Positions 14,170 through 62,169 of a stretch of DNA of 64,000 nucleotides are shown piece by piece. Made by a program: the position numbers and the translations under genes. Numbering within the stretch: the first letter of the stretch is position 1; every line of letters begins with the position of its first letter. The notes below the pieces were generated by a model. That model had not been told where the DNA came from, searched no databases, and saw only the letters and a list, made by a program, of their open reading frames with translations. The stretch comes from an uncultured virus (IMG/VR IMGVR_UViG_3300044646_001664) (Duplodnaviria; Heunggongvirae; Uroviricota; Caudoviricetes), in the IMG/VR virus record IMGVR_UViG_3300044646_001664, one strand, 5' to 3'.

Positions 14170-14385
14170 TTATTATTTACCTTTCATAGCAAAATTGAGT
14201 GAGTACTTCTTATTTTACGAAGTGGTCTTAAGTATATCACAAATTTAAAAAGAAAAACACGCTTAAAAAAATATGTAAATCTTTTGTTGAGGGTTAGTGC
14301 TTTTGTTTTTTTAAAGTCTATATGTTATTTATAATGCTTGTTTTTATGGTATAATTATAGAAAGTTTACCACAGCGGAGGTGCCT

Positions 14386-31883: not shown

Positions 31884-31894
31884 TATATTTCTCC

Positions 31895-32053
31895 TTAGTT
31901 AGGTAATTTATATTGTTCTGCTATTTCTTTTGCTTTGTCAAAATTTGATACATCAATCATTGAATATAAAACATAGCACAACCATTGGTAAGATGATTTC
32001 TCACAATACCCTTTTGATTGCATTGTTTTAGCAATGTCTTCTATAATTTCCAT
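31895..32053 (-). CDS. Small hypothetical protein (52 aa, not in ORF track)
   Basis: MEIIEDIAK...KLPN, TAATG-coupled to the upstream oxygenase. Confidence 0.45.
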   Translation of the reverse strand: MEIIEDIAKTMQSKGYCEKSSYQWLCYVLYSMIDVSNFDKAKEIAEQYKLPN

Positions 32054-32574
32054 TATTTATATTCCATAAACAAATTAATGGCATATCTAGTTCCTGAAAT
32101 AACACTATGTGCTACGTGTGCATATGGGTAGTTAGAAGGAAATAAAACCATTGAATTTTTTATTGGTTTTTCTTTAATTCCAAAATTAACAAACTCTATT
32201 TCTCCGCCCTCATAACTATCGTTTAAATAAATAACACAACTTGTTACCCTATTTGATACATGTTTAGATCCATCATCATAATGCATAACATATTTTTGAT
32301 TAGGCTCATACTTTAATGCCTCTATTGTAAAGTATGTTAATTCTGGTAAATAATACATATTCCTATATTGTCCTAAAAATTTATCTATTCCGCTTTGTAC
32401 AATATTAAAAATTTTTTCATACTTTTCTTTATCGTTAAAATATATAACAGAGTTAGACCTATCTTCTACTTTAACATTTTCTGGCTTAGACCATTCATAC
32501 TTATTTATTTCTTCTATTAGCATTTCTGGATTTTCTAAAACATCATAATAAAATTCTATACCATTTTTAGACAT
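32053..32574 (-). CDS. 2OG-Fe(II) oxygenase, prolyl-4-hydroxylase-like
   Basis: HYD...YLNDSYEGGE...FPSNYPYAH.......GTRY; likely start MSKNG. Confidence 0.9.
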   Translation of the reverse strand: MSKNGIEFYYDVLENPEMLIEEINKYEWSKPENVKVEDRSNSVIYFNDKEKYEKIFNIVQSGIDKFLGQYRNMYYLPELTYFTIEALKYEPNQKYVMHYDDGSKHVSNRVTSCVIYLNDSYEGGEIEFVNFGIKEKPIKNSMVLFPSNYPYAHVAHSVISGTRYAINLFMEYK

Positions 32575-33283
32575 TGCTATGCCTTTCGTCTTTTGTATAA
32601 AGTTTAATTTTTTTAACTTCATGTTCTCCAATTTTATTACCATATTGATCGGTGGCACTTCTATAAAAATCAGACCATTTTGGAATTTTATTGTTTTCTA
32701 AAATAACATTTCCATAATTTGTTAAATTTTTGTGATATTCATTTATATCGTATGGATTGTTATTTAAAGTCATTGTAGATTCATTTAAGTTAAAAAGAGA
32801 TATTGGCATTACTGCCATAAAAGGTTCGTTTGCCTTAAAGGTTATTGAAACATTTGGCTTTGTAATTTTCCAAGAAACTGGTATTGGAGAATTCCAAAAA
32901 CTTGTACTAATAATATTAGTTAGTGGCGATGCTCCGTCAATAACTAGGTTTGGTGGTCCAAAAAACAAAAGACTAACATTTGGATCTGTTTTAAAAAACC
33001 ACCCAATATTAAAAATTAAGGTTGCAGTTCCTCTATTTGTATCAACAAACTCTTGTCCCTCTAAAACCTTTATATGATTTCCTTCTTCTGTGTCGTTTCC
33101 ATCCCATATTACGGTTATATCTTTTGGAAATGAGAATCCCCAACCCATTTGATTGGTTAGGGATAATGGAAAACAGCGATATGCATGACCATCAAATGTT
33201 TTATCCATCCACTCTCTTTTTACTGGAAGTTGCTCTATCTTTGCTGCTCCCTGAAAAATTTCGTATGCTTCAATATTATACAT
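32567..33283 (-). CDS. DUF6065-like protein
   Basis: REWMD.T...HAYRCFPL...N..GW motif. Confidence 0.65.
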   Translation of the reverse strand: MYNIEAYEIFQGAAKIEQLPVKREWMDKTFDGHAYRCFPLSLTNQMGWGFSFPKDITVIWDGNDTEEGNHIKVLEGQEFVDTNRGTATLIFNIGWFFKTDPNVSLLFFGPPNLVIDGASPLTNIISTSFWNSPIPVSWKITKPNVSITFKANEPFMAVMPISLFNLNESTMTLNNNPYDINEYHKNLTNYGNVILENNKIPKWSDFYRSATDQYGNKIGEHEVKKIKLYTKDERHSNV

Positions 33284-33949
33284 TTATGCTGTTGTTCTAT
33301 TTTTTAAAATTTCATTTGCTCCGTGTGCTCGATCATTATAATCAAACATTGTCACTGCTGAATATTTTAATCCTTCTTCTACTGGAAGCGCTGCATGTGA
33401 ATAAATAAAGGTAGATGGAAACAAAACAATATCTCCTTCTTCTGGTTGATAAGTATAATTTAGGTATGGGAAAAATAATCCACCACCAACAAAGTTATCA
33501 TTTAAATACATGACTGTTGAAACTGTACAAATATAACTAAAACCATGATCTGAGTGAACTCCAAAATGGTGCCCTGGTCCATACTTTACAAAATTAACTG
33601 CTTCTTGATATCTCATTTGAATGTTATACATAGAACAATAATGGCTTAAGCATGATTGCAACCTAACATCGATATCTTCATAAATATTTTTTAAATCTGA
33701 ATTGGCTACAGATGGATTATTGGTTATATCATATTTTCTAACTTTAAAGTCTACACAATCTCGGTAATCTTTCATTGTTTGATAGTCGCCTACTTGTGCT
33801 TCAGACCACTTAAAAAATGTATCTTTATCTTTATTATTATCGATTACACTTTCTAATCTTTCTACCAAGTTTAATGATTTATTTAAACTATTTTTGTAAA
33901 TAAAAACACCATTTGCTGGATTTAAAATTTCAATATTTGTTGCTTCCAT
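33284..33949 (-). CDS. 2OG-Fe(II) oxygenase, prolyl-4-hydroxylase-like
   Basis: HSD...YLND...GG.L.F...FPS.FIYSH...PV..G.KY. Confidence 0.9.
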   Translation of the reverse strand: MEATNIEILNPANGVFIYKNSLNKSLNLVERLESVIDNNKDKDTFFKWSEAQVGDYQTMKDYRDCVDFKVRKYDITNNPSVANSDLKNIYEDIDVRLQSCLSHYCSMYNIQMRYQEAVNFVKYGPGHHFGVHSDHGFSYICTVSTVMYLNDNFVGGGLFFPYLNYTYQPEEGDIVLFPSTFIYSHAALPVEEGLKYSAVTMFDYNDRAHGANEILKNRTTA

Positions 33950-34021
33950 AGCAGACCCCTTTTCGTTATTTTAATTATACACCATATAGAGTTTTATACG
34001 CTACTATGGTAAAATATATAG

Positions 34022-34618
34022 ATGATCAATAAAAAATCTATAATCCCGTCTGGATATTATGGCAACTCTAAAGAAAATATAGTAATTATTAATAATTTTA
34101 TATCTCATGATGATATAAAAAAAATAAAAATATTTTGCTCAGAATTAAATACCTTTATGTCTATTCCTGGAGACAATTGGGATAATCGTGTTTGCAATAA
34201 CTCAATCCTTAAAGAAATTGCTCCTGATATTGAACAAATATTATCTACTTATCAAAAAAAACATAAAAAAATTATAGAAGATTTTTTTAGTATTGAATTA
34301 AAAGATAATGTGCCAAGCGTTGTTATATGGAGACAGGGTGATCTTCAACCACCACATGCAGATAAAGAAAATCTTGATGGAAGCCCAAACCTATATCCTG
34401 AAAACGACATTGCTTCCTTGTTCTATCTTAATAATGAGTATATTGGCGGAGAAATTTATTTTCCAACACAAGGATTACAATTTAAATTAAATGCTGGAGA
34501 TGCGGTATTTTTTCCAGGAGATGTTAACTATCAACATGGTGTTACTGAGGTAACTGAAGGAAAAAGATTTACCTGTCCAGCATTTTGGAATGTTATAAAA
34601 AATAATAAAAATATTTAA
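34022..34618 (+). CDS. 2OG-Fe(II) oxygenase, prolyl-4-hydroxylase-like
   Basis: HAD...YLN..Y.GGEIYF...HGV.EV..G.RF. Confidence 0.9.
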   Translation: MINKKSIIPSGYYGNSKENIVIINNFISHDDIKKIKIFCSELNTFMSIPGDNWDNRVCNNSILKEIAPDIEQILSTYQKKHKKIIEDFFSIELKDNVPSVVIWRQGDLQPPHADKENLDGSPNLYPENDIASLFYLNNEYIGGEIYFPTQGLQFKLNAGDAVFFPGDVNYQHGVTEVTEGKRFTCPAFWNVIKNNKNI

Positions 34619-37996: not shown

Positions 37997-38268
37997 AATA
38001 TTTGATTATACCATAAAATATGCTAACCCCTAGGCGCAGTGGGGGGGGTGGGGGCAACCTAGGGGCAGCACTAAAATTATAACATTATATATTAATAGAC
38101 ATTATATTTGTAACAAAACGTTATAAACCAGATATATAAAAATTGTTATTGAACCGTTATAAAGGTTTGGCATAAAGTTCGAAAAATCCAGGAGTTATGG
38201 TGTATACTTAAAATATATAAAGAAAAGAATATACTGTAAATAGGTTTTTAAGATATCTTTATATATAG

Positions 38269-38493
38269 TTACTTAGAATGATCTTTTAAATGTTCGATCA
38301 TTAAGTCAAAAATTTTTTCAGTCTTCTCTTCTAATCTTGTAATTTGGTCCTTCATCGAGGATCCATTATTGGGCTTCATTTCGTAAACAATATCTTCTAC
38401 GTATTTTTTAACAATCCATCTTACGCCCATTCCAACAATTGCAAGTATGGACAATAAAGTTAAAATCATTCCTGCCCAGTCTTGAGTTGTCAT
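38269..38493 (-). CDS. Small membrane protein (possible holin/lysis-associated)
   Basis: N-terminal TM helix followed by PN.GSSMKD...RLE coiled coil, a pattern seen in actinophages. Confidence 0.5.
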   Translation of the reverse strand: MTTQDWAGMILTLLSILAIVGMGVRWIVKKYVEDIVYEMKPNNGSSMKDQITRLEEKTEKIFDLMIEHLKDHSK

Positions 38494-39406
38494 GAATCCA
38501 ATTATAACATTATTTATTTTAAATTTCGGCGGGAATTAACGAAGCCGAAAAATAGAGATAACAAACCTTCCACCACCTAATATGTATGACACATACACTA
38601 TGGTGTAATATATGTCAAACCTTCTATGCGGCTATATGCTCTATATGAGGTTTGTTATTTAAAGTGTTTATTGACCAGAGAAACGATAATTGTTATACCT
38701 GCCAAAATTGCAAGAATTAACAAACCTCTATCTGAGTGATCATAACTTCCGCTACAACCAACCCATTCTTGATCTACGTAGCAGTCTTTAAACATACCTG
38801 CATATTGATTATTCTTCAAATGAGGTTTGAGATTCCAGGAGATTATTAACTACCGTGGTTTTGCAAGAACAATGATTACAAACCTCTTCTTCAAAAACTT
38901 TTAATGCCAAACCATTGTTTATAACTTTTTCGTTATTAGAGTGTGGGTCATAGCCTTTAGGGGTTTGTCTACTCCAGGATTCTGGATATGAAGGATTATC
39001 TATGTTATCTAGTATAGCCATGTGATTATTATATACTATATTGACCACCAGGTATTGGTGTTGTAGAAATACCCGACTTTTTCCTTGTACTCGAAATATT
39101 TTTTATTTACCTGGTTCCAGTCAGGATCGTTAGTTGACAAACCACAATATCCGCATAGCCCAGAACCTGTGTATCTATATACGTGTTGGCACATATATTG
39201 ATTATACCCTATACCCTGGAAATCTGAAAAAATTTTCATTTTGACAAAATCTGAATATTTTTATCAGATGTACGATACATGTTTAAAAAAAATAAAATAT
39301 AAAAAATTAGTGAGCACACTACTCTGGGTAGTGCGCCCTATCATAGTCTGCAAGGCTGCCACCATTGTCTAGGTGCGCCTTGCGTCTTAGTTGTTCAGCA
39401 GAATAC

Positions 39407-39884: not shown

Positions 39885-39926
39885 TTTAGTTTATCCTTTC
39901 GTTAGATAACTTTCTTTATACCTGCA

Positions 39927-39948
39927 ATTCTAGCAGGGGGGTCTGACA
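39927..39948 (-). promoter_or_regulatory. RecA-NDp/PafBC-type promoter
   Basis: TGTCAG-ACCCCCCTGC-TAGAAT. Confidence 0.7.
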
Positions 39949-39976
39949 ATTTAGGGGGGTTATTTGCTAGGCTCAC

Positions 39977-39992
39977 TGTGATTTGTCTCACA
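39977..39992. promoter_or_regulatory. CRP/GlxR-type site, perfect consensus
   Basis: TGTGA-TTTGTC-TCACA. Confidence 0.75.
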
Positions 39993-40048
39993 TTTACTTG
40001 CTAGGCTCACGCCCCTAAATAATTCTATATTTAATTTTCTATAATGGA

Positions 40049-40077
40049 ATTATAGCAGGGATAAGCCCAAAAGTCAA
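40049..40077 (-). promoter_or_regulatory. Housekeeping-sigma promoter, leftward
   Basis: TTGACT-N17-TATAAT with extended TG. Confidence 0.75.
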
Positions 40078-40181
40078 CACGACACGCCGTTAATAACACG
40101 CATGTAATTAGTGATATGCACCACACGACATATCGGACATATCGGACATGCAGCCCGGCTCGGTCGGGTGTGTCTGAGAGG

Positions 40182-40247
40182 GTTATCCACATGACGTAGA
40201 TCACATACCTATTTCACGCTCAAGTTATCCACATGACCTACATCACA
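40182..40247 (+). promoter_or_regulatory. Two DnaA boxes, each fused to a CRP-like site (24-bp direct repeat, 42-bp period)
   Basis: GTTATCCACATGACGTAGATCACA and GTTATCCACATGACCTACATCACA. Confidence 0.7.
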
Positions 40248-40287
40248 AGACACAATGTCCGTTTTGTACTACTTACTGGTGAGTAAA

Positions 40288-40309
40288 TGTCAGTGGTCGC
40301 TGTTATACT
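40288..40309 (+). promoter_or_regulatory. RecA-NDp/PafBC-type promoter
   Basis: TGTCAGTG-GTCGCTGT-TATACT. Confidence 0.75.
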
Positions 40310-40357
40310 TCTAGTATAAAGAAAGTTAAATAAAGGTTATTTAACAGAAAGGACAAA

Positions 40358-40465
40358 ATGAAAGATTTTGTTAAAAAGTTAGAATTAGAAAACTATCTTG
40401 ATGAAAGTCAAGATGAGTTAAGTCTAAGACTAGATGAGTTAATCGCTCTTGGTTCATATAACTAA
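40358..40465 (+). CDS. Acidic micro-protein (35 aa)
   Basis: GAAAGGA RBS, MKDFVKKLELENYLDESQDEL... Confidence 0.5.
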   Translation: MKDFVKKLELENYLDESQDELSLRLDELIALGSYN

Positions 40466-40569
40466 ATATAAAAAAAATCCTAGTGAGCCTTACTAAAAAA
40501 GTAAGCAAATAATCTAGGTCAAGGAAAAAGATAAACACAAGGTTTATCGCTTAAAGAAAGGAATTCAAA

Positions 40570-40743
40570 ATGAATTCACTAAAAAATAAAGTGTGTAAGC
40601 ATACACCTAATAAAAATGCTATCTCTATCCATCAGGATATGAAATATACTTTCTGTGAGAATTGCGAAAGCAATATCTACTCTCACTATATTGAGGACAA
40701 TGACTTAATGTCTTATTGGTCTTCATGGAAGGTAGGTAAATAA
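40570..40743 (+). CDS. Small putative Zn-binding protein (57 aa)
   Basis: GAAAGGA RBS; CxH...CxxC. Confidence 0.5.
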   Translation: MNSLKNKVCKHTPNKNAISIHQDMKYTFCENCESNIYSHYIEDNDLMSYWSSWKVGK

Positions 40744-40848
40744 ATGTTTTCTACAATAAAACTAAATTGTCGCATATGTGATGAACCTATTTATAGCGTT
40801 CATTTTGATACGCAAGACATAATCACTTGCTCAAATTGTTGGGAGTAA
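40744..40848 (+). CDS. Zn-ribbon micro-protein (34 aa)
   Basis: CRIC...CSNC. Confidence 0.45.
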   Translation: MFSTIKLNCRICDEPIYSVHFDTQDIITCSNCWE

Positions 40849-40849
40849 A

Positions 40850-40972
40850 ATGCTTAACGAAATAAAAAATAAAATAATTCGTATTCAAGAATTGCGCCGT
40901 AGTAATGCGGCAACACCAATTCCAAATAAAAAAAAATATAGTAGAAAGGTAAAACATAAAAATGCAAAATGA
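40850..40972 (+). CDS. Basic micro-protein (40 aa) with KKKYSRKVKHK motif
   Basis: GGAG RBS; translated by hand. Confidence 0.5.
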   Translation: MLNEIKNKIIRIQELRRSNAATPIPNKKKYSRKVKHKNAK

Positions 40973-41127
40973 AAATATAACTAAGCAATTTGAAAACGCA
41001 GTTGAATTAACTAATTTAACCGAAGCGCAATTAGAAATTGTTAAACAAATTTTATTAGATAAATTTAACTAATAAAAAATTTTTGCAGAAATAAAAACTC
41101 TGCAAAAAACCCGGCTCCCCTGGCGTG

Positions 41128-41160
41128 TCGTCCACAGCCTGTGGATAAACCTGTGGATAA
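41128..41160 (-). promoter_or_regulatory. DnaA box cluster
   Basis: TGTGGATAA at 41140 and 41152, plus an inverted 7/9 box TCGTCCACA at 41128. Confidence 0.75.
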
Positions 41161-41171
41161 CTTACGTACGA

Positions 41172-41187
41172 TGTGATTTTTCTCACA
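41172..41187. promoter_or_regulatory. CRP/GlxR-type site, perfect consensus
   Basis: TGTGA-TTTTTC-TCACA. Confidence 0.75.
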
Positions 41188-41235
41188 CAGTTTGAGCGTC
41201 TTATTATTTGAGATTACTGGCTAGTAGGTTGTAAA

Positions 41236-41257
41236 TGTCTGCTAATTCTGCTAAACT
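41236..41257 (+). promoter_or_regulatory. RecA-NDp/PafBC-like promoter (variant)
   Basis: TGTCTG-N10-TAAACT; also TTGTAA at the -35 position. Confidence 0.55.
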
Positions 41258-41299
41258 TACAGAGTAAGAAAATAACAAAAAAGAAAGTAGGTAGCAAAA

Positions 41300-41497
41300 A
41301 TGGCTAACCTTTACACAATAGAAAACCTTTTACAAGGTAAACAATATCGCTCTAATTCTCTTAATGGAGAAATTATTAGCGGTGAAAAAACCGACCATTG
41401 GTTTGGTAATGATAGAGAAGCGTATCGTGTTTTAATTCGCACACCGCATTCTTATACAGACCACTATCGCATAATTGCGGTTAAGGTAGGTGAATAA
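41300..41497 (+). CDS. Small early protein
   Basis: 65-aa ORF after promoter and RBS. Confidence 0.55.
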   Translation: MANLYTIENLLQGKQYRSNSLNGEIISGEKTDHWFGNDREAYRVLIRTPHSYTDHYRIIAVKVGE

Positions 41498-47818: not shown

Positions 47819-47823
47819 TCATT

Positions 47824-47897
47824 GGTTCTGTAGCATAGTTGGTTAATGCGCTACCCTGTCACGGTAGAGATCGTGGGTTCAAGTCCCATCAGAGCCG
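47824..47897 (+). tRNA. tRNA-Asp(GTC), CCA not encoded
   Basis: Acceptor GGTTCTG/CAGAGCC, anticodon arm CTACC-CTGTCAC-GGTAG, T arm GTGGG-TTCAAGT-CCCAT, discriminator G. Confidence 0.92.
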
Positions 47898-48539
47898 CCC
47901 CGGGTTTTCTTTCTTTAAATAATAACACATGATTGCTTCATTAAGAAAGATTGACTTTTTCCCCAGTTTCCTGTAAAATATTAACATGACCACAATTAAC
48001 AAACCACTAACCATAGACGGCCTAATAATGAATATATATGAGGACAACTCTGAACATTTTGACTTTATATATAGCATGAATAATGGAGACTGCGATTGTT
48101 GTCTTCACTTTGCAATGAATTTGATTAAGGAGTATGATAGATAATGTTAGGTTATACATATAAAGATATACAGGCCTTTGGTAATAGTTTAACTTGGGCT
48201 ATTGATACCGCCAAAAACCAGGGGGATGAACAAAACTATAAACAATTACTAATAGTATGGGACTTCTTTGAGGGACTACTAGCAGAAGGTTACATAGATG
48301 AGAACACATACTATGGATAATGGCGAGATCTTAGATAAGATTATAGAACTTATAAACACAGACGGAGAGATCATGTCTGATGAAGAGGTTGTTAATAATA
48401 TTAGGGGACTTCTTGAGACTAACCCTCAAACCTATTGGGGAGCAAGCCAAAGCAGTGTGATGTAGATCACCTTACGATATCTTGTAATTTTTCCCAGTTC
48501 GTAGTAAAATTGTATTAAGAACCTAAAGAAAGAGACCCA

Positions 48540-50365: not shown

Positions 50366-50599
50366 ATGTATCGTATTAACAGAGTAAAGCGACAGACCAA
50401 TGAGGAAAAGGTTGCGGTTGGAATTGGCAAATTGCTATCTGACTTTTACCTTGACTTAGAAAAGGTTGGCTATTACTTGGCTACAGCAACTCCTTATTTA
50501 ATTTATCGCAGGTCATTAGAAGTATTAGAAAGCGCACAGTTCCAAGAGGACAAGATAGAGCAAAACAGATTGGGGTATGATAGTGACCGACTTCCGTAA
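50366..50599 (+). CDS. Hypothetical protein
   Basis: ORF after TGGTATAAT. Confidence 0.55.
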   Translation: MYRINRVKRQTNEEKVAVGIGKLLSDFYLDLEKVGYYLATATPYLIYRRSLEVLESAQFQEDKIEQNRLGYDSDRLP

Positions 50600-50861
50600 T
50601 GTATGTGAGATTTTAGGAAAACTTTATTCCGTATATAAAGATGATGAAGAGTTTAAAGACTTCATAGAGTTTAATGACTTAGGGCTACCGCTTGCTTACT
50701 TTGTTTCTGAGAACCTTTGTGAGGTAGCAGATGACGGGGCACGGTATATAACAGAAACATGGGCACTATTCTTAGCAGGGTTAAACCTAGAGGATACTGG
50801 CTTCTCTGATTTAGATGAGGTCTTTGAGAGTGCAGAGGAGAAGAACAATGGAACTGAGTAA
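50577..50861 (+). CDS. Acidic hypothetical protein
   Basis: F..FNDLGLPLAY motif. Confidence 0.55.
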   Translation: MIVTDFRNVCEILGKLYSVYKDDEEFKDFIEFNDLGLPLAYFVSENLCEVADDGARYITETWALFLAGLNLEDTGFSDLDEVFESAEEKNNGTE

Positions 50862-51419
50862 TAACTATTTAGATGAACAGTTACTTAAAGCCCAACAGTT
50901 GCTATGGTCTGGCTCTCTACATGAAGTGGACCAGGCACACAACATCATTGCTAACTTAATTAAAGATCGCCTACCAGCATAGGAAAAACCCGGTATCAAT
51001 TACCAAACCTTCAAACCTTATTTACGAAAAAGACATTAAGAACCCAATTCAAAAAATCCCAGAAAGTTTGACAAACCTTCAAACCTTTATATTTAAAGAT
51101 AGTATAATATATATATGAGTCCTCGTAACTACTATAGTAAGAATCGTATTGATAGATATAATATGAGTCCTTCTTTTGTATCTACCGCTTCAGGTATGGC
51201 AGAGAAAAAGGTAGAGAGGTTTGTTACTAGGGTATTACGATCCATCTTTAAGTCCCGCCGTCGCAATAAATCATAGTACTAATAGACATTACGAAGCGGG
51301 AAAAAAAATCCCAGAAATATACAGATTATTCCCATAATTACCAAACCTTTCTAGATTTTTTCTGGGGTTTTTCCTACATTTTCCTACATTTTCTGGGCAT
51401 TTTTATAGGGGTTTTTTAC

Positions 51420-51448
51420 TTGACAAACCATGGTATTGGGGGTATAAT
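51420..51448 (+). promoter_or_regulatory. Perfect consensus promoter with no protein gene directly downstream
   Basis: TTGACA-N17-TATAAT. Confidence 0.8.
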
Positions 51449-51454
51449 GCATGC

Positions 51455-51652
51455 CGCATATGGGGATAGGAAGGTTTGGGATAGGGAGGTTTGGCCGCCA
51501 GAGGATTACGACGCCATCTATAAAATCGCCCAATCCCCCACTATGCTCCACTTTCCTCCATTCTAACCCAATCTAAAAAATGTCAGTAAGGATTATCTTT
51601 CATACCAAACCTCCAAACCACCTATTTAAAAGCCTTCCAAGCCCTATTTGCG
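51455..51652 (+). ncRNA. Candidate ~200-nt structured non-coding RNA
   Basis: Starts at the predicted +1; 5' and 3' arms pair in four colinear helices. Confidence 0.55.
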
Positions 51653-51796
51653 ACGGTATTTAACCATCTCGCTGGTTCCCAAACCAGACATATCTGGCTA
51701 TCTGAGATATGGGGATAGGGGGATATAAGGTTTGTTATTACACTGGGGATTATGATACTCCTTCTGTACCCGCCAAAAATAGGATACAATAAGTTT

Positions 51797-52411
51797 ATGT
51801 CTAATACTGGTTGGCTGGGATCAAGGTTTGGTAAAGGGCATTACCCAAATTGGTTTGAAGCATCAGGTCAATATAACTTTGAAGAATTCTTGTCTGAGTA
51901 TAAAGATAAACCTAACTTAAACTATCTTCAATTAGGTGTCTTTACTGGAGATACAAGTTACTGGCTAATGAATCATGTATTAACCCATGAAACCTCACAT
52001 TTAACGGATGTTGATACTTGGCTAGGATCATCTGCTGAAAGCGATGTTCATGATAATTATGACTTTGAAGATGTCTATCAATTATATTTAAGTAGGATGC
52101 AACCATTTTCTCCTCGTGTTCATAGTGAAAGATCTACAACCTTTGATTTTTTAAATGCTGAAAAAAACAACACCTATGATTTTATTTACATTGATGCAGA
52201 TCATGTTGCCAGTAACGTATTAAGTGATGCCGAACTGTCTTGGCCATTATTAAAGACTGGTGGAATTCTTGCATTTGATGACTACTCTTGGGGTGATGAA
52301 AAACCTGCTCACCTAAGACCTAAAACTGCTATTTTGTCATTTGTTGAAAAATACAAAAATGAAATAGAAACAATGGCTATGAACCATCAATATTGGATTA
52401 AAAAAATATAA
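51797..52411 (+). CDS. Class I SAM-dependent methyltransferase (Methyltransf_24-like)
   Basis: LQLGVFTG, VDTW.GS, YDFIYIDADH, LKTGGILAFDDY. Confidence 0.85.
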   Translation: MSNTGWLGSRFGKGHYPNWFEASGQYNFEEFLSEYKDKPNLNYLQLGVFTGDTSYWLMNHVLTHETSHLTDVDTWLGSSAESDVHDNYDFEDVYQLYLSRMQPFSPRVHSERSTTFDFLNAEKNNTYDFIYIDADHVASNVLSDAELSWPLLKTGGILAFDDYSWGDEKPAHLRPKTAILSFVEKYKNEIETMAMNHQYWIKKI

Positions 52412-52646
52412 CTGTTTACTATCTATGGTATTACGATCTTTCTTGCTATTCCCGCCGATTTATGGTATGCTTAATGTAAACAGAAGGGAAAATTATGACA
52501 ACAGAAATGATACATGAAATAATGCAAGAAATGTTTAGCAATGAAAAATCAGGTGGACTTTTCTATATTGAAAGCGACAAAGTTAATAAAATAATTCAAA
52601 GTTACTTTCCAAAGGCTTTTGAATCATTTGAACCTGCTTACTAATA

Positions 52647-55158: not shown

Positions 55159-55428
55159 ATGAATGCAGAAGAAATAATCCAAACCATAAAAGACCAGTAT
55201 TACCTTTGCCCCAACATAGACGATGATGTTTGCTATACATGGTGGAAACATGATGAGTGTGAAACATTACGATCACTTCTTTATACCGTCACAAAAGATC
55301 TAAGGTATGTAGAACCATTAAGTAAGTTAAGACCAAATGTAAAAGAGGCTATTGAAGAAATGTTAAGTGATCCAGAGAGCCAAGCATTAATGGAACGATT
55401 AAAGTATATGGAAGATAATGGAATCTAA
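55159..55428 (+). CDS. Hypothetical protein
   Basis: 89-aa ORF. Confidence 0.45.
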   Translation: MNAEEIIQTIKDQYYLCPNIDDDVCYTWWKHDECETLRSLLYTVTKDLRYVEPLSKLRPNVKEAIEEMLSDPESQALMERLKYMEDNGI

Positions 55429-56200
55429 TTTAAAAACCAGCATATTAGATACGTTAGAATATTCTAAACAATTAATTATTTCTCCTGATATTGATGGATT
55501 TATGACTGCTAAGTTAATTAATCGATACAATGGGTCAGTTGTTGTTGGAGCATACGATAAAAACATTTTAACTATTGCTGATGGAATTAATCCAGAAGAT
55601 TGTCTTTTTGTGGATTGTGATATGAATACGCCAGAGTTTGTCTCTATTGGTAACCATATGCGGTTGCCTTCTGACAACATTTCTATTAATTCTTTTAATC
55701 CAAACCTACACTTTGAAGTAATAAAGTATACAGATAAATTTCCTTATGCTACTTGTTTTTTAATAACATTTGCAACTGGTGTAACTACCTCTGATCTTGA
55801 TAAGAATTTTATGGCTTACGCAGATTCCACATACAAGAATTTAATAAATTATGAAAGAAATATGAAGAGTTGGTCTACAAGAATATATCACAATGAAGTA
55901 GAAAGAGTGTTAAATCCAAAACCTTCTGATCATAACGAAAGACTATGGATAGAAAAAACATATCCAAAACAATCATTTCTTTCAAAACAGTTTGGCAAAA
56001 CTAGATATATACAAGCACTAAATAATTCATTGGCATCAGAAAATATAGAACATTTGCCAATTATGCATGGTAAAAAATATAAAACAGGCTTAGTAGATAA
56101 GAATACTGTGACACGATATAACAAAGATATGATCTCATATGCAGAAATATACTCTGGAGAATACTCTGTTACGTATAATCAGATAGCCGATTGGGAGTAG
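55418..56200 (+). CDS. Divergent DHH-like phosphoesterase-fold protein
   Basis: SPDIDG and FVDCD motifs; NH where DHH is expected. Confidence 0.4.
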   Translation: MESNLKTSILDTLEYSKQLIISPDIDGFMTAKLINRYNGSVVVGAYDKNILTIADGINPEDCLFVDCDMNTPEFVSIGNHMRLPSDNISINSFNPNLHFEVIKYTDKFPYATCFLITFATGVTTSDLDKNFMAYADSTYKNLINYERNMKSWSTRIYHNEVERVLNPKPSDHNERLWIEKTYPKQSFLSKQFGKTRYIQALNNSLASENIEHLPIMHGKKYKTGLVDKNTVTRYNKDMISYAEIYSGEYSVTYNQIADWE

Positions 56201-56202
56201 GA

Positions 56203-56895
56203 TTACTGTTCGTAAGGGCTAGGGTTTGTTAGTAATTCTTTAAATATATTATCAACCATTATAGTTAAACCTGTATCTTCTGTTGATAAATAAATAGAAT
56301 TTTTAGTTATTTGTGCTGATCTTGCAGCATGCCTTTTGTTTTTATATACTTTAACATCTTCCATTTGACTACCCCCAACATTAAATAAATTACCATACAT
56401 TGATCTCCATAAACATTCTGGATATTGGTTTAATATATAAAGTAATCCCGCTTTATGCATTGGCATTGGTACGTGTAACTCATAGTCTAATGGTTTTGTA
56501 AACCCCAACTTGTTTAATTTATTGTTTGTTGTTATAAGTTTTCTAATATACATTGATGATCCAGTAATCTTTGTAAACTTATCTATTTTTTCAGACAACA
56601 GCCCATTGTAAAATTGTTCTATTGTTTCTATTTTTTTAATAATAAAAAAATCATCATTCATTAATATAAAATTATCAGATATATCTGAGGTATCGCAAAC
56701 AGCCTTTAAATTATTTACAGCATTAGCATATTTGTTATCATTTTGTTCTAAAAAAACATGATTGCCAGAATACCATTTTGGCTTTCCACCTACGACCCAA
56801 ACCTTTGCCTCTGGAAAACTAAGCAAGACAGACCTAATGGAGTATCTTAACTCTTCATTTTCTCCATCACGACAAATATAAACAAAATCCATCAA
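56203..56895 (-). CDS. Stealth-like hexose-phosphotransferase
   Basis: DFVY, ELRYSIRS, FILMNDDFF, HVP.P motifs. Confidence 0.7.
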   Translation of the reverse strand: MMDFVYICRDGENEELRYSIRSVLLSFPEAKVWVVGGKPKWYSGNHVFLEQNDNKYANAVNNLKAVCDTSDISDNFILMNDDFFIIKKIETIEQFYNGLLSEKIDKFTKITGSSMYIRKLITTNNKLNKLGFTKPLDYELHVPMPMHKAGLLYILNQYPECLWRSMYGNLFNVGGSQMEDVKVYKNKRHAARSAQITKNSIYLSTEDTGLTIMVDNIFKELLTNPSPYEQ

Positions 56896-56954
56896 ATACC
56901 CCGCTTTCTTATAAGTATATCAGAATCTGGTATACTGTTATAAACACAGAATGG

Positions 56955-57923
56955 GTGGGATCCTTGGCTAATATAGTATTTCTAGGCAACTTTGAAGTGC
57001 CTTATAGTAGTGAGAATCATCATGCTAAGTCTTTGGAATCTCTTGGCCATACCGTGCAAAAACTGCAAGAAAAAAAAGCAGGTAGCACAGAAATATTAAA
57101 CGCAGCATTAAACTCTGATCTATTTATCTGGGTACACACACATAGATGGCAGACTCCAGGATCTAGATCTATGACTGATGTACTAAAAGAATTAAAGGCT
57201 GCTGGCATACCAACTATGACTTATCACTTGGATTTGTGGTTTGGAATTGAGCGTGAAAAAGATTTAAAGAATGATGACTTCTACACAAACATAGGTCATT
57301 TTTTTGCTACAGATAAGTTAATGTGTGATTGGTTTAATAAAAATACAGAAGTTAAAGGACACTTCTTGCCTGCTGGTGTGTATGATAAAGAATGCTACGT
57401 TCATCAAGATTACGATCCACACAACTTTGAACATGACATAATTTTTGTTGGTAGCAGAGGGTATCACCATGAGCATAAATACCGTCCACAACTAATAGAT
57501 TTCTTACGAAAAACATACGGTAAAAGATTCCTACATGTTGGTGGCGATGGAGATACTGGAACTGTGCGTGGAGAAGCGCTTAATCGCATCTATGCAAGAA
57601 GCAAAGTAGCCATAGGTGATAGTTTAAACATTAACTTTAACTATCCGTACTACACAAGCGATAGACTATTTGAAAGCACTGGTCGTGGTGGTTTTACTAT
57701 CTATCCTCGCATCAAGGGGCTTGATGAATATTTTGAAGATGGTAAAGAAATTATATTTTATGAACATGGTAATCTTGAAGATCTTAAACAAAAAATAGAT
57801 TACTACATCTTAGATGGATTAACCAGGGAAGAAATAAGGATTGCTGGTCATGAACGGACTAAAAAAGAACATACATATGTTCATAGATGGGCAAGCATAT
57901 TAGAAACTTTAAACATAAAATGA
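56955..57923 (+). CDS. Glycosyltransferase (CgeB/Glyco_trans_1_2-like)
   Basis: DIIFVGS, SDRLFE..G.G, HTY.HR. Confidence 0.8.
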   Translation: MGSLANIVFLGNFEVPYSSENHHAKSLESLGHTVQKLQEKKAGSTEILNAALNSDLFIWVHTHRWQTPGSRSMTDVLKELKAAGIPTMTYHLDLWFGIEREKDLKNDDFYTNIGHFFATDKLMCDWFNKNTEVKGHFLPAGVYDKECYVHQDYDPHNFEHDIIFVGSRGYHHEHKYRPQLIDFLRKTYGKRFLHVGGDGDTGTVRGEALNRIYARSKVAIGDSLNINFNYPYYTSDRLFESTGRGGFTIYPRIKGLDEYFEDGKEIIFYEHGNLEDLKQKIDYYILDGLTREEIRIAGHERTKKEHTYVHRWASILETLNIK

Positions 57924-58807
57924 AATATTTAGTTACTGGTGGTGCTGGTTTTATTGGATCAAACCTTGTTGATAAGTTAATTAGTCTTGGTCACGAGGTT
58001 ATTTGTATTGATGATGAGTCTGCAGAATGTCATGAGCAGTTCTATTGGAATAATAAAGCACAAAATTATAAGCATGACATTTGTGATTATGACCTAATTG
58101 CACCACTCTTTAAAGATGTTGACTGCGTATTTCACGTAGCATCTGATGCAAGAATACAGCCAGCAATATTAAATCCAAAAAAATCTATTCAATCAAACGC
58201 AGTAGGAACAGCCAATGTTCTTGAACTCTGTAGGGTTAACAAGGTAGGTAGACTAATCTATTCAAGCACATCCTCTTCTTATGGTAAAAAGGCTTTGCTT
58301 CCAAACCAAGAAACACAATCCCCTGATCCACTAACCCCATACTCTGCTGCTAAAGTTTTTGGTGAAAACCTTGCAAGAGTTTACTACAACCTTTATGGAT
58401 TAAAGACTATATCCCTTAGATATTTTAATGTTTATGGAGATAGACAACCATTAAAGGGGCAGTATGCACCAGTAATAGGATTATTTTTAAAACAACATCA
58501 TGAGTCAAAGCCACTAACAGTAGTTGGCGATGGCTCTCAACGTAGAGATTTTACTCACATATCAGACGTAATAGAAGCAAACATCCTTGCATCTGAGGTT
58601 GAAAATGGATTTGGTGAAGTGTATAACATTGGGTATGGAAGTAACTACGCTATACTTGATATTGCTAATATGATTTCAAATGATATTAAATTTATACCGC
58701 CAAGAATTGGTGAGGTGCAAGAAACTCTTGCCTCTAACGCCAAGTTTAAAGATCTAACTGGATGGATACCAAAAGTATCATTAGTAGAGTGGATACAGAA
58801 TGACTGA
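57920..58807 (+). CDS. NAD-dependent nucleotide-sugar epimerase/dehydratase
   Basis: TGGAGFIGS, YSAAK, LRYFNVYG, GDGSQRRDF. Confidence 0.92.
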   Translation: MKYLVTGGAGFIGSNLVDKLISLGHEVICIDDESAECHEQFYWNNKAQNYKHDICDYDLIAPLFKDVDCVFHVASDARIQPAILNPKKSIQSNAVGTANVLELCRVNKVGRLIYSSTSSSYGKKALLPNQETQSPDPLTPYSAAKVFGENLARVYYNLYGLKTISLRYFNVYGDRQPLKGQYAPVIGLFLKQHHESKPLTVVGDGSQRRDFTHISDVIEANILASEVENGFGEVYNIGYGSNYAILDIANMISNDIKFIPPRIGEVQETLASNAKFKDLTGWIPKVSLVEWIQND

Positions 58808-59513
58808 AATGATTAAGGCTACTGTTAACGGGGAATTTGAAATAATGTTACCAAAGCATCGTGCAGATAGACCAGAATGGTATCAACCACATGGTTGGGA
58901 AAAAATTAGATTAAAATCAATGCATGAAAATATTGGTAAAGGCGATGTTGTTTACTATGTTGGAGCAGAAGAAGGAGAGATGCCTGCCCTATGTCAAATG
59001 TGGGGAGCAGAAGTTGTTTTATTTGAACCTAATCCAAAGGTTTGGTCACACTTTCCTTTGCTTTGGAGTGCTAATAATTTAGAAAAACCAATTGCATGTA
59101 TTCCTGGGTTTGCATCAGATAAAGATAATAAACTTGCACGTATTTATTATGGCGAGTTTCCACCAGAAGCAGATGCTCCTATTGAGGCTGCTCATGGATT
59201 TAAAGAACTGCAGTATGAAGCAGATAAATATGGTCAAACAAAAATTGATACGCTTGTATATGAAAAAAGAATGAAGCCGCCTACTGCAATTTCTCTTGAT
59301 GTTGAGGGTAGTGAATGGAGGGTCCTAGGAGGGGCTGAAAGGGTCCTTAGAGAGCACAAACCTAAGATTTGGCTATCTGGACACCCAGAATTTATGATGA
59401 TCTATTGGAAAGAATATTTGCATGATTTAAGACAGTTTATTAAGGGTATTGGCTACAAAGAAACATTGCTTGACTATCAACATGAAGTACACTTATATTA
59501 TGAGCGATCTTAA
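58800..59513 (+). CDS. FkbM-family methyltransferase
   Basis: VGA..G, FEPNP, LDVEGSE..VL.G. Confidence 0.8.
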   Translation: MTEMIKATVNGEFEIMLPKHRADRPEWYQPHGWEKIRLKSMHENIGKGDVVYYVGAEEGEMPALCQMWGAEVVLFEPNPKVWSHFPLLWSANNLEKPIACIPGFASDKDNKLARIYYGEFPPEADAPIEAAHGFKELQYEADKYGQTKIDTLVYEKRMKPPTAISLDVEGSEWRVLGGAERVLREHKPKIWLSGHPEFMMIYWKEYLHDLRQFIKGIGYKETLLDYQHEVHLYYERS

Positions 59514-60354
59514 AGCATATCTTTATTCAGTTAAACAAGAAGATTGTGCTGCTGATAAATGGGATTACGGTTTATTAAAACAATTTTTTAATAAAAATAA
59601 TATTAAACCAGATAAGGTAACAATTTTACCTAACACAGATAGAGCCTTTGTTGTTATTCCTGGACCACAAAATGTAGACTATGAAGATAAAATATCTGAA
59701 GAGTTAAACAAGATAGGTAGAGTAGTTTTGTTTATTACTGGAGATGAAAGTGCTACATTTAAAGTTGATAAGATAAAGCATAAAAATATTGAAATTTGGA
59801 TTCAATACCCACACAGAAAACATTCACAATATAATAAATTAGCATTGGGTGTGCCAAGAGATTTACACAAAAATTTGCCAAAGTATCAAGATAAGTTATA
59901 TGATGTATTTTTTTCAGGGCAGATAACTCATCAAAGAAGACAAGAACTTGCAACTGTTATGCCTAACATACCCAATTCTTTTTATAATCCAACTACTGGT
60001 TTTGCAGAAGGACTAAAACCAAAACAATACTATGACAAAATGTCTTTATCAAAGATTGTTCCTTGCCCTAGCGGGGCGATGGTCATTGATTCATTTAGAT
60101 TTTATGAAGCAATTGAAATGCTTTGCTTGCCAATAGGAGACAAGTTAGACTCAAAAATGCAAAATACAGATTTTTTTAATTTTGTATTTGAAGATAATCA
60201 TTCAGTAAAAACTGTTGATAATTGGAATCACTTGGTTGACTTGTTACCTGAACTATTAAATAATTATACATCTGAAATGCATCAGATTGTTTGTTGGTGG
60301 ATTAAATATAAAAGAGATCTTTTTATTAAGTTAATGAGGCAAGTAAATGCATAA
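59500..60354 (+). CDS. Exostosin/GT47-like glycosyltransferase
   Basis: FFSGQ, Y...M..SK..PCP.G...DSFRFYEA. Confidence 0.7.
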   Translation: MSDLKAYLYSVKQEDCAADKWDYGLLKQFFNKNNIKPDKVTILPNTDRAFVVIPGPQNVDYEDKISEELNKIGRVVLFITGDESATFKVDKIKHKNIEIWIQYPHRKHSQYNKLALGVPRDLHKNLPKYQDKLYDVFFSGQITHQRRQELATVMPNIPNSFYNPTTGFAEGLKPKQYYDKMSLSKIVPCPSGAMVIDSFRFYEAIEMLCLPIGDKLDSKMQNTDFFNFVFEDNHSVKTVDNWNHLVDLLPELLNNYTSEMHQIVCWWIKYKRDLFIKLMRQVNA

Positions 60355-61108
60355 AAGGGATATAACAATTGTCATGGCTACATCTGTAGTTTTAGATCAT
60401 CCAAACACAAAAATGATAGATCAAACCATTAGTGATATTCGTGTTCATTTTCCAGACAACGAAATTATTATGCAAATAGATGGTCTTAGAGAAGAACAAC
60501 AAGATCGTAAAAAAGATTACGATGAATACAAAAATCGTATTTTATGGAAATGTTTACATGAAGATAAAAACATATTACCTTTTATATTTAAAGAGCATAG
60601 CCATCAAACCAACATGATGCGTCAAACAATCAATGAAATTAAAACACCACTATTACTTTATATTGAAGGAGATGCTCCTTTAACTCCAGACACACCTATA
60701 GACTGGGATAAGTGCTTAGATATGTTTGAATACAATAAAGCAAATACTATTCGTTTTCATTTTGAAGCATTTATACCAAAAGATCACGAACACCTTATGT
60801 TTGGTTTAGAAGATGGGTTTATGAAAACTATACAATGGAGTCAACGACCACATCTAAGTAGAAAACAATATTATAAAGACATTGTGCTTCCAAGATGTAA
60901 AGATAAATTTTTTATAGAAGATACATTTCATGGAGCAATTCAAGATGATATATCTCCATATGGGGAATTTAATAAAGAAGGTTGGGAAACTCACAAACTT
61001 TGGATTTATCATCCTGAAGGAAACATTAAACGTTCTTATCATTTAGATGGTCGTCAAGGCGGAAGAAAGTATACTTCAGATGATGAAACTTGGGGGTACA
61101 AAGAATGA
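60347..61108 (+). CDS. GT-A-like glycosyltransferase
   Basis: ITIV..TS, TPLLLYIEGD, WS.RPH, HLDGR. Confidence 0.55.
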   Translation: MHKRDITIVMATSVVLDHPNTKMIDQTISDIRVHFPDNEIIMQIDGLREEQQDRKKDYDEYKNRILWKCLHEDKNILPFIFKEHSHQTNMMRQTINEIKTPLLLYIEGDAPLTPDTPIDWDKCLDMFEYNKANTIRFHFEAFIPKDHEHLMFGLEDGFMKTIQWSQRPHLSRKQYYKDIVLPRCKDKFFIEDTFHGAIQDDISPYGEFNKEGWETHKLWIYHPEGNIKRSYHLDGRQGGRKYTSDDETWGYKE

Positions 61109-62142
61109 GACTAGGAATCATAGCAAGATCAGACAACACTGGTCTTGGCAATCAGACTAGAGAGTTAGTTAATATGCTTAATCCTAATAAGATTCTTTTA
61201 ATTAACTCTGCCCCGTTTAATAATAATAAACAAAATCCCGATTGGTATAAAGATTACAACGTTTACTCAACCAAAAACGGTATGCCAACAAGAAAAGAAA
61301 TTGTTTGGTTTTTAAAAGATGTTGATGTAGTAATTAGTTGTGAAACCTTTTATCATTTAGACCTTGTAGATCTTGCTAGGCAACAAGGAACAAAGACTAT
61401 TCTTCAATACAACTACGAACTTTTTGGTAACTTAACAAACCCTAACTGGTCATTACCAGATGTATTGCTGTCTCCTAGTCTTTGGAATATAGAGATAGTA
61501 AAAGAAAAGTTTGGCTCTGTGTGTGATGTAATTCACTTGCCACCACCAACAAATGAGTCTTTATTTAATAAAGCAAAAGACAATAATCTTTCAAAAGATC
61601 ACAACCGCATACTTCATATTGCTGGTAAAAAGGCTGCAAAAGATAGAAATGGAACTGAAAGTATTTTTGAAATGATCAAGCACTCTAAAGAAGATTACGA
61701 ATTAGTAATTAAATCTCAAACCCCACTTAATCCAAACTGTAAAGATTCTAGGGTAAAGATTGAAATAGGTAATCCAGCCAGTAGGGAAGACATGTATGAT
61801 GGCTTTGATGCAATGATTCTTCCTAGAAGGTATGCTGGTCTTTGTTTACCTATGAATGAGGCTCTTATGAGTGCCCTGCCAGTTTTTATGACTAATGTAT
61901 CTCCGAATAATAAAATATTGCCTGAAGATTGGTTAGTAGAATCAACAAAGATAGGATCATTTAGAACAAAGTCAATGGTTGATATTTATGATATTGCTCC
62001 AGATAAATTTGCAAATATAGTTGATGGATATATTAAGAATAATAATAAAAAAGAATTTAAAGAAAAAGCATTATCGATTGGTTTAGAAAACTTTTCTATA
62101 GATAAATTAAAACAAAAATACTTAGAAATTATAAACAAATAA
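61105..62142 (+). CDS. Glycosyltransferase, GT4-like
   Basis: TGLG.QT, LPRRYAGLCLP..EAL...LPV. Confidence 0.75.
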   Translation: MRLGIIARSDNTGLGNQTRELVNMLNPNKILLINSAPFNNNKQNPDWYKDYNVYSTKNGMPTRKEIVWFLKDVDVVISCETFYHLDLVDLARQQGTKTILQYNYELFGNLTNPNWSLPDVLLSPSLWNIEIVKEKFGSVCDVIHLPPPTNESLFNKAKDNNLSKDHNRILHIAGKKAAKDRNGTESIFEMIKHSKEDYELVIKSQTPLNPNCKDSRVKIEIGNPASREDMYDGFDAMILPRRYAGLCLPMNEALMSALPVFMTNVSPNNKILPEDWLVESTKIGSFRTKSMVDIYDIAPDKFANIVDGYIKNNNKKEFKEKALSIGLENFSIDKLKQKYLEIINK

Positions 62143-62169
62143 AAAAGCCAGCCTATCTCTAGACTGGCT
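62141..62169 (-). terminator. Intrinsic terminator between convergent genes
   Basis: AGCCAG...CTGGCT with a minus-strand T-run. Confidence 0.6.

Follow-up and report, generated by a model that had tools for sequence, protein, structure and literature searches.

The window analysed here is a 64,000-nt stretch of DNA from an uncultured virus of the class Caudoviricetes (IMG/VR record IMGVR_UViG_3300044646_001664). It encodes portal, protease, capsid and tail proteins, a ribonucleotide reductase, four 2OG-Fe(II) oxygenase paralogues and a sugar-modification cluster. A gap without genes of about 0.8 kb (50985–51796; also given as about 0.85 kb) lies within a long run of small plus-strand genes. 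It contains a promoter, designated P1, arrays of a short repeat and a core of fixed length (Table 1). In a first-pass annotation made from the sequence, positions 51420–51652 had been described as a candidate non-coding RNA (ncRNA) of about 200 nt. The comparison with related loci suggests a different, tentative interpretation: the region may be one copy of a conserved cis-acting DNA module, possibly a transcription-activated replication origin.

The core is flanked by two repeat arrays, which correspond to the arms of the proposed RNA helix. Their units are copies of a heptamer, (A)GGTTTG(G), and of its complement, CCAAACC(T). The upstream half of the gap also contains copies of ATTACGA/TTACGAA, the T-rich inverted repeats AAAAATCCCAGAAA / TTTCTGGGGTTTTT and one small open reading frame (ORF). 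Other short motifs recurring in the gap are ATTACGA, GGGGATA and AAAAATCCCAGAAA, and the block ATATGGGGATAGGGGGATATAAGGTTTG in its last part repeats the beginning of the left array in direct orientation.

Table 1. Features of the gene-free gap and of the gene that follows it, in window coordinates.
Feature	Position	Strand	Details
Upstream half of the gap	50985..51419		CAAACC(T) at 51004, 51012, 51072, 51080 and 51342; GGTTTG at 51218
Small ORF, 53 aa	51115..51276	+	TATAAT 6 nt before its ATG; no family match; C terminus basic
Promoter P1, TTGACA-N17-TATAAT	51420..51448	+	12/12; −35 at 51420–51425, −10 at 51443–51448
Left array (5′ arm of the helix)	51455..51494	+	G-rich; two AGGTTTGG (51472–51479, 51487–51494) in 15-nt GGGATAGGrAGGTTT units
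Conserved fixed-length core	51493..51599		107 nt; ATTACGA at 51505–51511; (A)AnnGCnCnAT block; ends in A+T-rich ATCTAAAAAATGTCAGTAAGGATTAT
Right array (3′ arm of the helix)	51603..51652		CCAAACC at 51605–51611 and 51613–51619; also AAGCCTTCC, CCCTATTTGCG
Rest of the gap	51653..51796		CAAACC copy inside the small palindrome CTGGTTCCCAAACCAG; block ATATGGGGATAGGGGGATATAAGGTTTG; −10-like TATGAT at 51751–51756
Downstream gene, Methyltransf_24-type methyltransferase	51797..52411	+	Outside the module; relatives have unrelated downstream genes

Relatives of the locus were gathered in two ways, via the downstream methyltransferase and via a 15-mer of the pyrimidine-rich stretch in the core, which gave at least 119 loci. 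This stretch, noted in the first-pass annotation as part of the interior of the RNA, is present at 51535–51563. Among the matches listed, 34 unique loci share the same modular layout, namely the window and 33 related viral loci. Two of the core repeats are imposed by the search 15-mer, so that they define membership of the family. The nearest diverged relative, L006, is identical to the window over 51466–51665, and most of its approximately 40 differences are in the preceding 196 nt; its methyltransferase is 91% identical in protein to that of the window. Farther afield, the genes downstream of the module are unrelated among the relatives, and the module therefore appears to be an autonomous, single-copy unit, better conserved than its neighbours.

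Six or seven of the 34 contigs end in the module or beside it. The breaks are located inside the module or at most 300 nt from it, at varying positions, in L013, L041, L070, L074, L078 and L120, as well as in L076, which belongs to a second family described below. This suggests that repeats or strain variation disrupt the assembly at the module. A fixed genome terminus at this place was also considered and rejected: the contig ends are at varying positions, and the sole contig labelled as having a direct terminal repeat (DTR) has only a 109-nt end overlap.

The length of the core is 105–110 nt in 32 loci. Three repeats with an invariant CCA are spaced exactly 10 bp apart in it (51538–51540, 51548–51550 and 51558–51560 in the window); two of these triplets are forced by the search pattern, and the third is not. 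Further invariant elements are ATTAnG and AGTAA, together with the GCnCnAT block. In the family profile, the A+T content reaches a maximum of 82% at +30 to +49 from the core start, between the core repeats and the DnaA boxes found in many relatives. The A+T-rich stretch of the window occupies 51570–51604, so that A+T-rich DNA adjoins the repeats in the manner of iteron origins. P1 and the A+T-rich stretch are both present, at a distance of about 120–150 nt, and the sequence between them is conserved. On the plus strand, which was the one tested, the 33 loci share no frame that runs open through the core from a consistent start.

The promoter had been described as a perfect TTGACA-N17-TATAAT sequence, and this is correct. 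Besides P1, the 64 kb of the window contain no exact TTGACA-N16-18-TATAAT; at least one such sequence arises in 18 of 100 shuffles. Among the 32 loci with full upstream sequence, P1 matches the consensus at 12/12 positions in 26 and at 11/12 in one more, and the spacer is always 17 nt long. Promoter matches at the relatives’ loci are found on the forward strand 29 times versus 5 times on the reverse strand. The spacer itself is only 55% identical across the relatives, usually with a GGTTTG-like copy. In the window, a CAAACC copy (51424) overlaps the −35 hexamer, and a degenerate heptamer is located in the spacer; in seven relatives, CAAACC is found at about +3, so that an inverted pair brackets the −10 hexamer. 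Judging from this pattern of conservation, P1 appears to be a real promoter under striking selection. Because it is perfect in 26 of 32 loci despite the divergence of its spacer, transcription of the region is very probable. There is no ORF beginning behind P1. No intrinsic terminator was found in 50500–52500, and thus nothing defines the 3′ end of an RNA of about 200 nt. The next gene, at 51797, had been credited with its own promoter; only the −10-like TATGAT was found there, without a −35 element, and the consensus scan gave no plus-strand site.

The heptamer is strongly clustered in the gap. Its six-mer core occurs 14 times, in both orientations, within 50985–51830 (846 nt), against 1.5 copies expected (Poisson P about 1e-9). 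The orientation of the copies changes across the core: in 31 loci, 119 GGTTTG and 23 CAAACC copies were counted upstream of it, whereas downstream there are 38 CAAACC and 2 GGTTTG copies, 12 of the 31 loci having no downstream copy. The left array, which follows P1, contains two to six GGTTTG copies, with two or more in 30 of 31 loci. The possibility that the heptamer is a genome-wide promoter operator was rejected, as the other promoter-like sites of the window have it no more often than expected (5 of 51, versus about 6). A general, regulon-type operator is therefore unlikely, and locus-specific iterons are favoured. Short repeats clustered at one locus in direct and inverted orientation are characteristic of iteron origins.

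Several other repeats can be noted beside the gap heptamers. The window contains 25 copies of the 8-mer CCAAACCT, where 2.4 would be expected, and approximately 11 of them are inside one ORF of 1731 aa (18962–24157, minus strand), which has no PHROG match. The copies in this ORF are in frame, with spacings that are multiples of 3; they look like protein-level repeats and were treated as unrelated to the heptamers of the gap. A looser second cluster of heptamers, with 10 six-mer cores per 1.2 kb in both orientations, is located at 38100–39200 among small minus-strand ORFs and includes an inverted pair at 38616 and 38649. The GGGATAGGrAGG units (51463–51494 and 51707–51734) resemble the start-associated sequence (SAS) of Cluster K mycobacteriophages, a 13-bp GGGATAGGAGCCC-like motif found a few nucleotides upstream of many start codons (PMC3203893); their placement differs. 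A SAS-like translation signal was rejected, as the units do not precede start codons and are not dispersed through the genome. GGGGATA occurs only seven times in the window, three of them in the gap.

Perfect TGTGGATAA DnaA boxes were found at this module in 19 of the 34 loci. There are 57 of them, all in one orientation, and some loci have up to five. The first box is located at +48 to +54 from the core motif, and the boxes usually form a pair 2–3 bp apart (offsets +52/+64 or +54/+65). The exact 21-mer of the box pair is present in at least 120 bacterial species, often within oriC-like arrays, and the boxes of the relatives therefore appear to be genuine DnaA sites. Loci without boxes at this position are the window, L006 and 13 others; in the clade of the window, CCAAACC copies take this place. 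A literature text search with four motif strings matched 5,243 papers; the 12 listed among them were unrelated human, plant or animal papers, none with the 21-mer box pair.

A second family with the same core repeats comprises 35 viral loci among the matches listed, including L015, L034, L037, L048, L054, L069, L019 and L043. In these loci, upstream TTGACA promoters and a TTGACATTACG motif are followed by very A+T-rich DNA ending in a −10-like TAGTATAAAT/TAGTATGAT. Three CTCCAC repeats with 10-nt spacing come directly after this end, then a short GC hairpin and a stretch rich in GGAG/GGGAGGGGG. The first CTCCAC repeat is often TTCTCCACA, which is one mismatch off the DnaA-box consensus; perfect DnaA boxes are absent from this family.

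As for the RNA itself, the pairing on which the ncRNA proposal was based can be reproduced for the window copy. All four of the pairings named in the first-pass annotation are found, colinearly, in the minimum free energy fold of 51455–51652, and the first paired base is 51455, the predicted +1. The plus-strand fold has an energy of −52 kcal/mol and a z-score of −2.81, and none of 200 shuffles is as good; for the minus strand, the z-score is −1.33, and 17 of 200 shuffles are as good. A repeat search gave an imperfect inverted repeat with arms of 40 nt (51455–51494 and 51613–51652) that are 70% complementary. When the arms are folded alone, the plus strand forms 35 pairs, four of them G-U, with −48.7 kcal/mol, and the minus strand forms 34 pairs, one of them G-U, with −40.5 kcal/mol; G-U pairs do favour the plus strand, as had been stated, in the window copy.

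The structure is not conserved in the relatives. RNAalifold found 0 conserved pairs on the 32-sequence core alignment. The mean folding z-score from +1 to the core end in 31 loci is −0.12 on the plus strand and −0.47 on the minus strand, and the full-length folds of 12 members are alike on both strands (about −1.3 on plus versus −1.1 on minus, averaged from the listed values). In these 12 folds, a long-range helix was seen only in members that happen to have inverted heptamers. The only substitution in the 5′ arm of L006 lacks a compensatory partner and makes the fold less stable (−46.2 instead of −53.1 kcal/mol). In Rfam 15 (E up to 10), nothing overlaps 51420–51652, and nearby chance matches have 14–23 bits versus gathering thresholds of 35–90. 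As the right flank in the window copy is built of inverted heptamers, it inevitably complements the left array; the helix thus appears to be a by-product of these repeats. Apparently, the conserved part of the module is neither a folded RNA nor a gene. Given the lack of an Rfam match, of a conserved fold and of a terminator, and the absence of the 3′ arm in 12 of 31 loci, the proposal of a discrete structured ncRNA of about 200 nt was not borne out. Among the roles suggested for it, that of a replication RNA survives insofar as it overlaps with an origin, while a polymerase decoy of the 6S/Ms1 kind has neither an Rfam match nor a conserved helix or central bubble.

These features are more consistent with an assembly site for proteins on DNA than with an RNA fold, because the repeats are locus-specific and in mirror orientation, the core has a fixed length and its repeats a one-face phasing, an A+T-rich stretch follows, DnaA boxes are optional at a fixed distance, and the single-copy module is conserved above its neighbours. 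The proposed origin would be arranged in the following order: T-rich DNA, P1 as an invariant sigma-70-type consensus promoter, the GGTTTG array (with one copy in the spacer), the 107-nt core, an A+T-rich stretch of about 20–30 bp, and a right flank of tandem host DnaA boxes, inverted heptamers in the CAAACC orientation, or both. The three core repeats, being in 10-bp phase, would lie on one face of the helix. A phage protein binding the heptamers, together with host DnaA in most relatives, may assemble on either side of the core and the A+T-rich stretch. P1 would then fire a non-coding transcript through the module, and this transcript may open or prime the DNA for the DnaB-like helicase, primase and Pol III alpha of the phage. 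Such an origin would operate in the manner of T4 oriF/oriG, while its repeats and DnaA boxes would recall iteron origins.

A replication gene set was read in the window together with G001, an IMG/VR record 98% identical to it, which adds a DnaB-like helicase, primase, SSB, DnaE-like polymerase and UvsX-like recombinase. The DnaE-like polymerase is 53–55% identical to polymerases of Streptomyces phages, e.g., BillNye and Ankus. Given this identity and the gene content, the phage appears to be a lytic, actinophage-like virus with its own replisome. A recognisable initiator gene is absent from this gene set. The 53-aa ORF upstream of P1 is probably leaderless, judging by the position of its −10 element. 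Its MSPR... start and ...FKSRRxNK end are kept in the relative L008, and its product is a candidate binder of the surrounding repeats.

A number of observations weigh against an origin at this site. No initiator gene adjoins the module, its neighbours being the 53-aa ORF and the methyltransferase. The module of the window contains no DnaA box at one mismatch or fewer in 50985–51796. The A+T-rich stretch, at its distance of about 120–150 nt, is farther from P1 than in T4 origins. The arms of the window also pair 8 kcal/mol better as plus-strand RNA than as minus-strand RNA. In five of the 19 box-bearing loci, a third box is located inside the spacer of a downstream TTGACx-N17/18-TATxxT promoter, and a leaderless gene begins with an ATG exactly 6 nt after the −10 hexamer; two further loci have a similar leaderless promoter after the boxes, with no box overlap. 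Such a layout looks like DnaA-controlled transcription rather than an origin. In the basal unwinding system (BUS) of bacterial chromosomes, as described in the source cited, tandem DnaA boxes at most 3 bp apart are accompanied by an unbroken run of three or more NAN trios, located no more than 16 bp from the first box (PMC8287927). No such DnaA-trio run stands beside the boxes here; at most two consecutive NAN trios can be read in any frame of the family consensus, which was inspected by eye and for which the strand convention is uncertain.

Another place in the window also competes for the role of the origin. Perfect DnaA boxes were found at 40183 and 40225, both TTATCCACA and inside 42-bp direct repeats, and as a tandem pair at 41140–41160, TGTGGATAA-acc-TGTGGATAA, preceded by a near-box in the opposite orientation. 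They belong to a non-coding hub at 39900–41300, where the leftward and rightward gene blocks diverge and where repeated TTGCTAGGCTCAC units and a CATATCGGACAT tandem are also present. Boxes about 9–13 kb upstream of the module were found in three other long contigs as well (4/4 with the window), and the region of the window is collinear with a complete 100-kb relative. As a location for an origin, the site at 40–41 kb is no less classical than the module and can be regarded as an alternative candidate. Two short stretches of the hub (39911–40077) match the complete relative G002 (13834–15021) in reverse, with collinear flanks, which points to a local inversion or inverted repeats.

It is also possible, if somewhat unlikely, that the module serves transcription control only. 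P1 would then be a very strong early or middle promoter heading a variable gene block, and a phage regulator would use the heptamers as its operators, either silencing P1 or stopping elongation. As a conserved element, the core would serve as a leader or as a platform for the regulator, the DnaA boxes would tie the next promoter to host DnaA, and there would be no role in replication. A heptamer in the P1 spacer with an inverted copy at about +3 in seven relatives is a classical operator layout, and P1 has the direction of all flanking genes. Moreover, the genes of five relatives start 73–124 nt past the core with neither boxes nor heptamers between, so P1 would be their promoter; the box inside a leaderless promoter in five of the 19 box-bearing loci fits here too. 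However, the heptamer is at chance level at other promoter-like sites, and an expression promoter rarely needs a 12/12 match in 26 of 32 diverged lineages. Transcription control also leaves unexplained the fixed 107-nt core, the 10-bp phasing, the A+T-rich stretch, the distance of the tandem boxes and the mirror orientation of the heptamers. It should be kept in mind that these readings are not mutually exclusive, because promoters are parts of origins in T4 as well as in T7 and lambda.

A regulatory RNA without a conserved fold is unlikely. In this case, P1 would produce an abundant ncRNA whose sequence would sequester ribosomes, mRNAs or an RNA-binding protein, in the manner of a sponge or decoy. 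Its 5′ end would contribute Shine–Dalgarno (SD)-like GGAGG/GGAAGG units and its core CCUCC/CUCCAC units; the long closing helix would have been gained in the clade of the window. Such an RNA would agree with an invariant perfect promoter without an ORF behind it, with neighbouring genes that look leaderless, and with a core conserved in both sequence and length. The window copy adds its plus-strand z-score of −2.81, the 8 kcal/mol advantage of its arms and their four G-U pairs, and downstream heptamers are nearly all in the orientation able to pair with the upstream array (38 versus 2). On the other hand, the missing Rfam match and terminator, the 0 pairs of RNAalifold, the mean z-score of −0.12 and the uncompensated change in the 5′ arm of L006 all count against an RNA. 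Full-length folds stabilise both strands equally, and 12 of 31 loci have no downstream arm. Phasing at exactly 10 nt and DnaA boxes that are perfect 9-mers point to DNA, not to RNA.

Still less probable is a site for DNA entry or membrane tethering via host DnaA, similar to the injection stop signal (iss) of phage T5, where an untranslated repeat region with paired DnaA boxes would mark the end of the first-entering DNA. According to the cited part of the T5 study, T5-like phages have conserved untranslated repeat regions in which DnaA boxes are always paired, 3 bp apart, and which are better conserved than neighbouring ORFs and have inverted partner regions (10.1101/866236). Similarly, the pairs of the relatives studied here are 2–3 bp apart, the module is better conserved than its neighbours, oppositely oriented boxes are found 9–13 kb upstream across small early genes in 4/4 long contigs, and six or seven of 34 contigs break in the module or beside it. 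However, there is no sign of a long terminal repeat or genome end, the sole ‘DTR’ contig having a 109-nt end overlap, the contig ends vary in position, and the window copy has no boxes; the T5 model is itself a proposed mechanism. The least probable reading, and a very doubtful one, is that an abundant unstructured RNA with SD-like (GGAGG/GGAAGG and UUUGG) and anti-SD-like (CCUCC/CUCCAC, 10-nt spacing) units titrates ribosomes or mRNA leaders in favour of leaderless phage mRNAs, the DNA repeats and DnaA boxes only regulating its synthesis; it is retained because a sponge RNA would also show sequence conservation without a fold.

Some further searches and features of the genome can be mentioned. 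A blastn search (distant mode) of 50900–52400 against 50,697 phage records gave no match. GC skew along the window shows no turning point at 51.4 kb and mainly reflects gene content, for which reason it was given no weight. In a run labelled RNA-Seq but probably containing DNA, 5% of the sampled words of the sequence were present, and five contigs (132–208 nt) of 85–99%-similar relatives covered 51028–51085 and 51347–51567; these data are uninformative on expression. The four paralogous 2OG-Fe(II) oxygenase genes are arranged in a row (31293–34618), and a tRNA-Asp is located at 47823–47900. Glycosyltransferases, an NAD-dependent epimerase/dehydratase and FkbM-type methyltransferases are clustered at 55400–62150, perhaps for DNA or surface sugar modification.

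If the interpretation as an origin or as a control element is true, the module indicates at which site, and by what means, replication begins or early transcription is switched in a large group of uncultured phages of freshwater and wastewater, probably actinobacterial ones. The same core is flanked by host DnaA boxes in some lineages and by the phage’s own repeats in others, and owing to this natural swap, reliance on the host initiator can be tested as a trait that evolves. As an invariant promoter with a 12/12 match, P1 would be a rare example in nature of a perfect consensus maintained by selection. P1 or the whole module may be useful as a strong portable promoter or origin cassette for phages with not-yet-cultured hosts. 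In addition, the example indicates that a convincing ‘RNA hairpin’ in a single sequence can arise from inverted protein-binding repeats.

The module can be compared with several known systems. Plasmid P1 oriR and the iteron plasmids have iteron origins with DnaA boxes, and the lambda ori is activated by transcription from pR. The module resembles these origins in its short direct and inverted repeats, some copies of which overlap the promoter, in its A+T-rich stretch and in the DnaA boxes beside it. It differs in that the repeat unit is 6–8 bp and not 17–22 bp, no Rep or O gene adjoins it, the DnaA boxes are optional (19 of 34 loci, the window not included), and the additional 107-nt core has no counterpart. 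In the primary origin of T7, the promoter is an integral part of a small cis element, as it is here. With 6S RNA, Ms1 and small RNAs that block ribosome-binding sites, the window copy alone shares a strong promoter, the absence of an ORF, a length of about 200 nt and a long imperfect closing helix around a large interior. Unlike 6S and Ms1, it has no Rfam match and no terminator, and no helix or central bubble is conserved in the relatives.

The chromosomal BUS is similar to the module of the relatives, where tandem consensus DnaA boxes no more than 3 bp apart adjoin A+T-rich DNA and the same 21-mer is common in bacterial genomes; the run of three NAN trios is missing here, and the window copy lacks the boxes. 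The T5 regions, within the part of the study cited above, are likewise conserved non-coding DNA with direct and inverted repeats and, as in the relatives, DnaA pairs about 3 bp apart, and they are conserved above the adjacent ORFs. Unlike the module, they are situated in a 10-kb terminal repeat and have no perfect consensus promoter, and there is no sequence similarity. In the T4 origins oriF (uvsY) and oriG (gene 34), as described in the source cited, an A+T-rich unwinding element is found no more than about 100 bp downstream of a promoter, and priming is by an R-loop (PMC3016281). As described there, the T4 promoters depend on MotA, whereas P1 is a perfect host-type consensus, and the unwinding element of T4 comes immediately after the promoter and requires no particular sequence, whereas here it is preceded by about 120–150 nt of repeats and highly conserved core. 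Neither iterons nor DnaA boxes occur in T4 origins, and an R-loop at the module would be suggested by analogy only. At the same time, the promoter in both cases is integral to a small cis element with an A+T-rich stretch downstream and no need for an ORF, and, like T4, the phage studied here has its own helicase, primase and UvsX-type recombinase.

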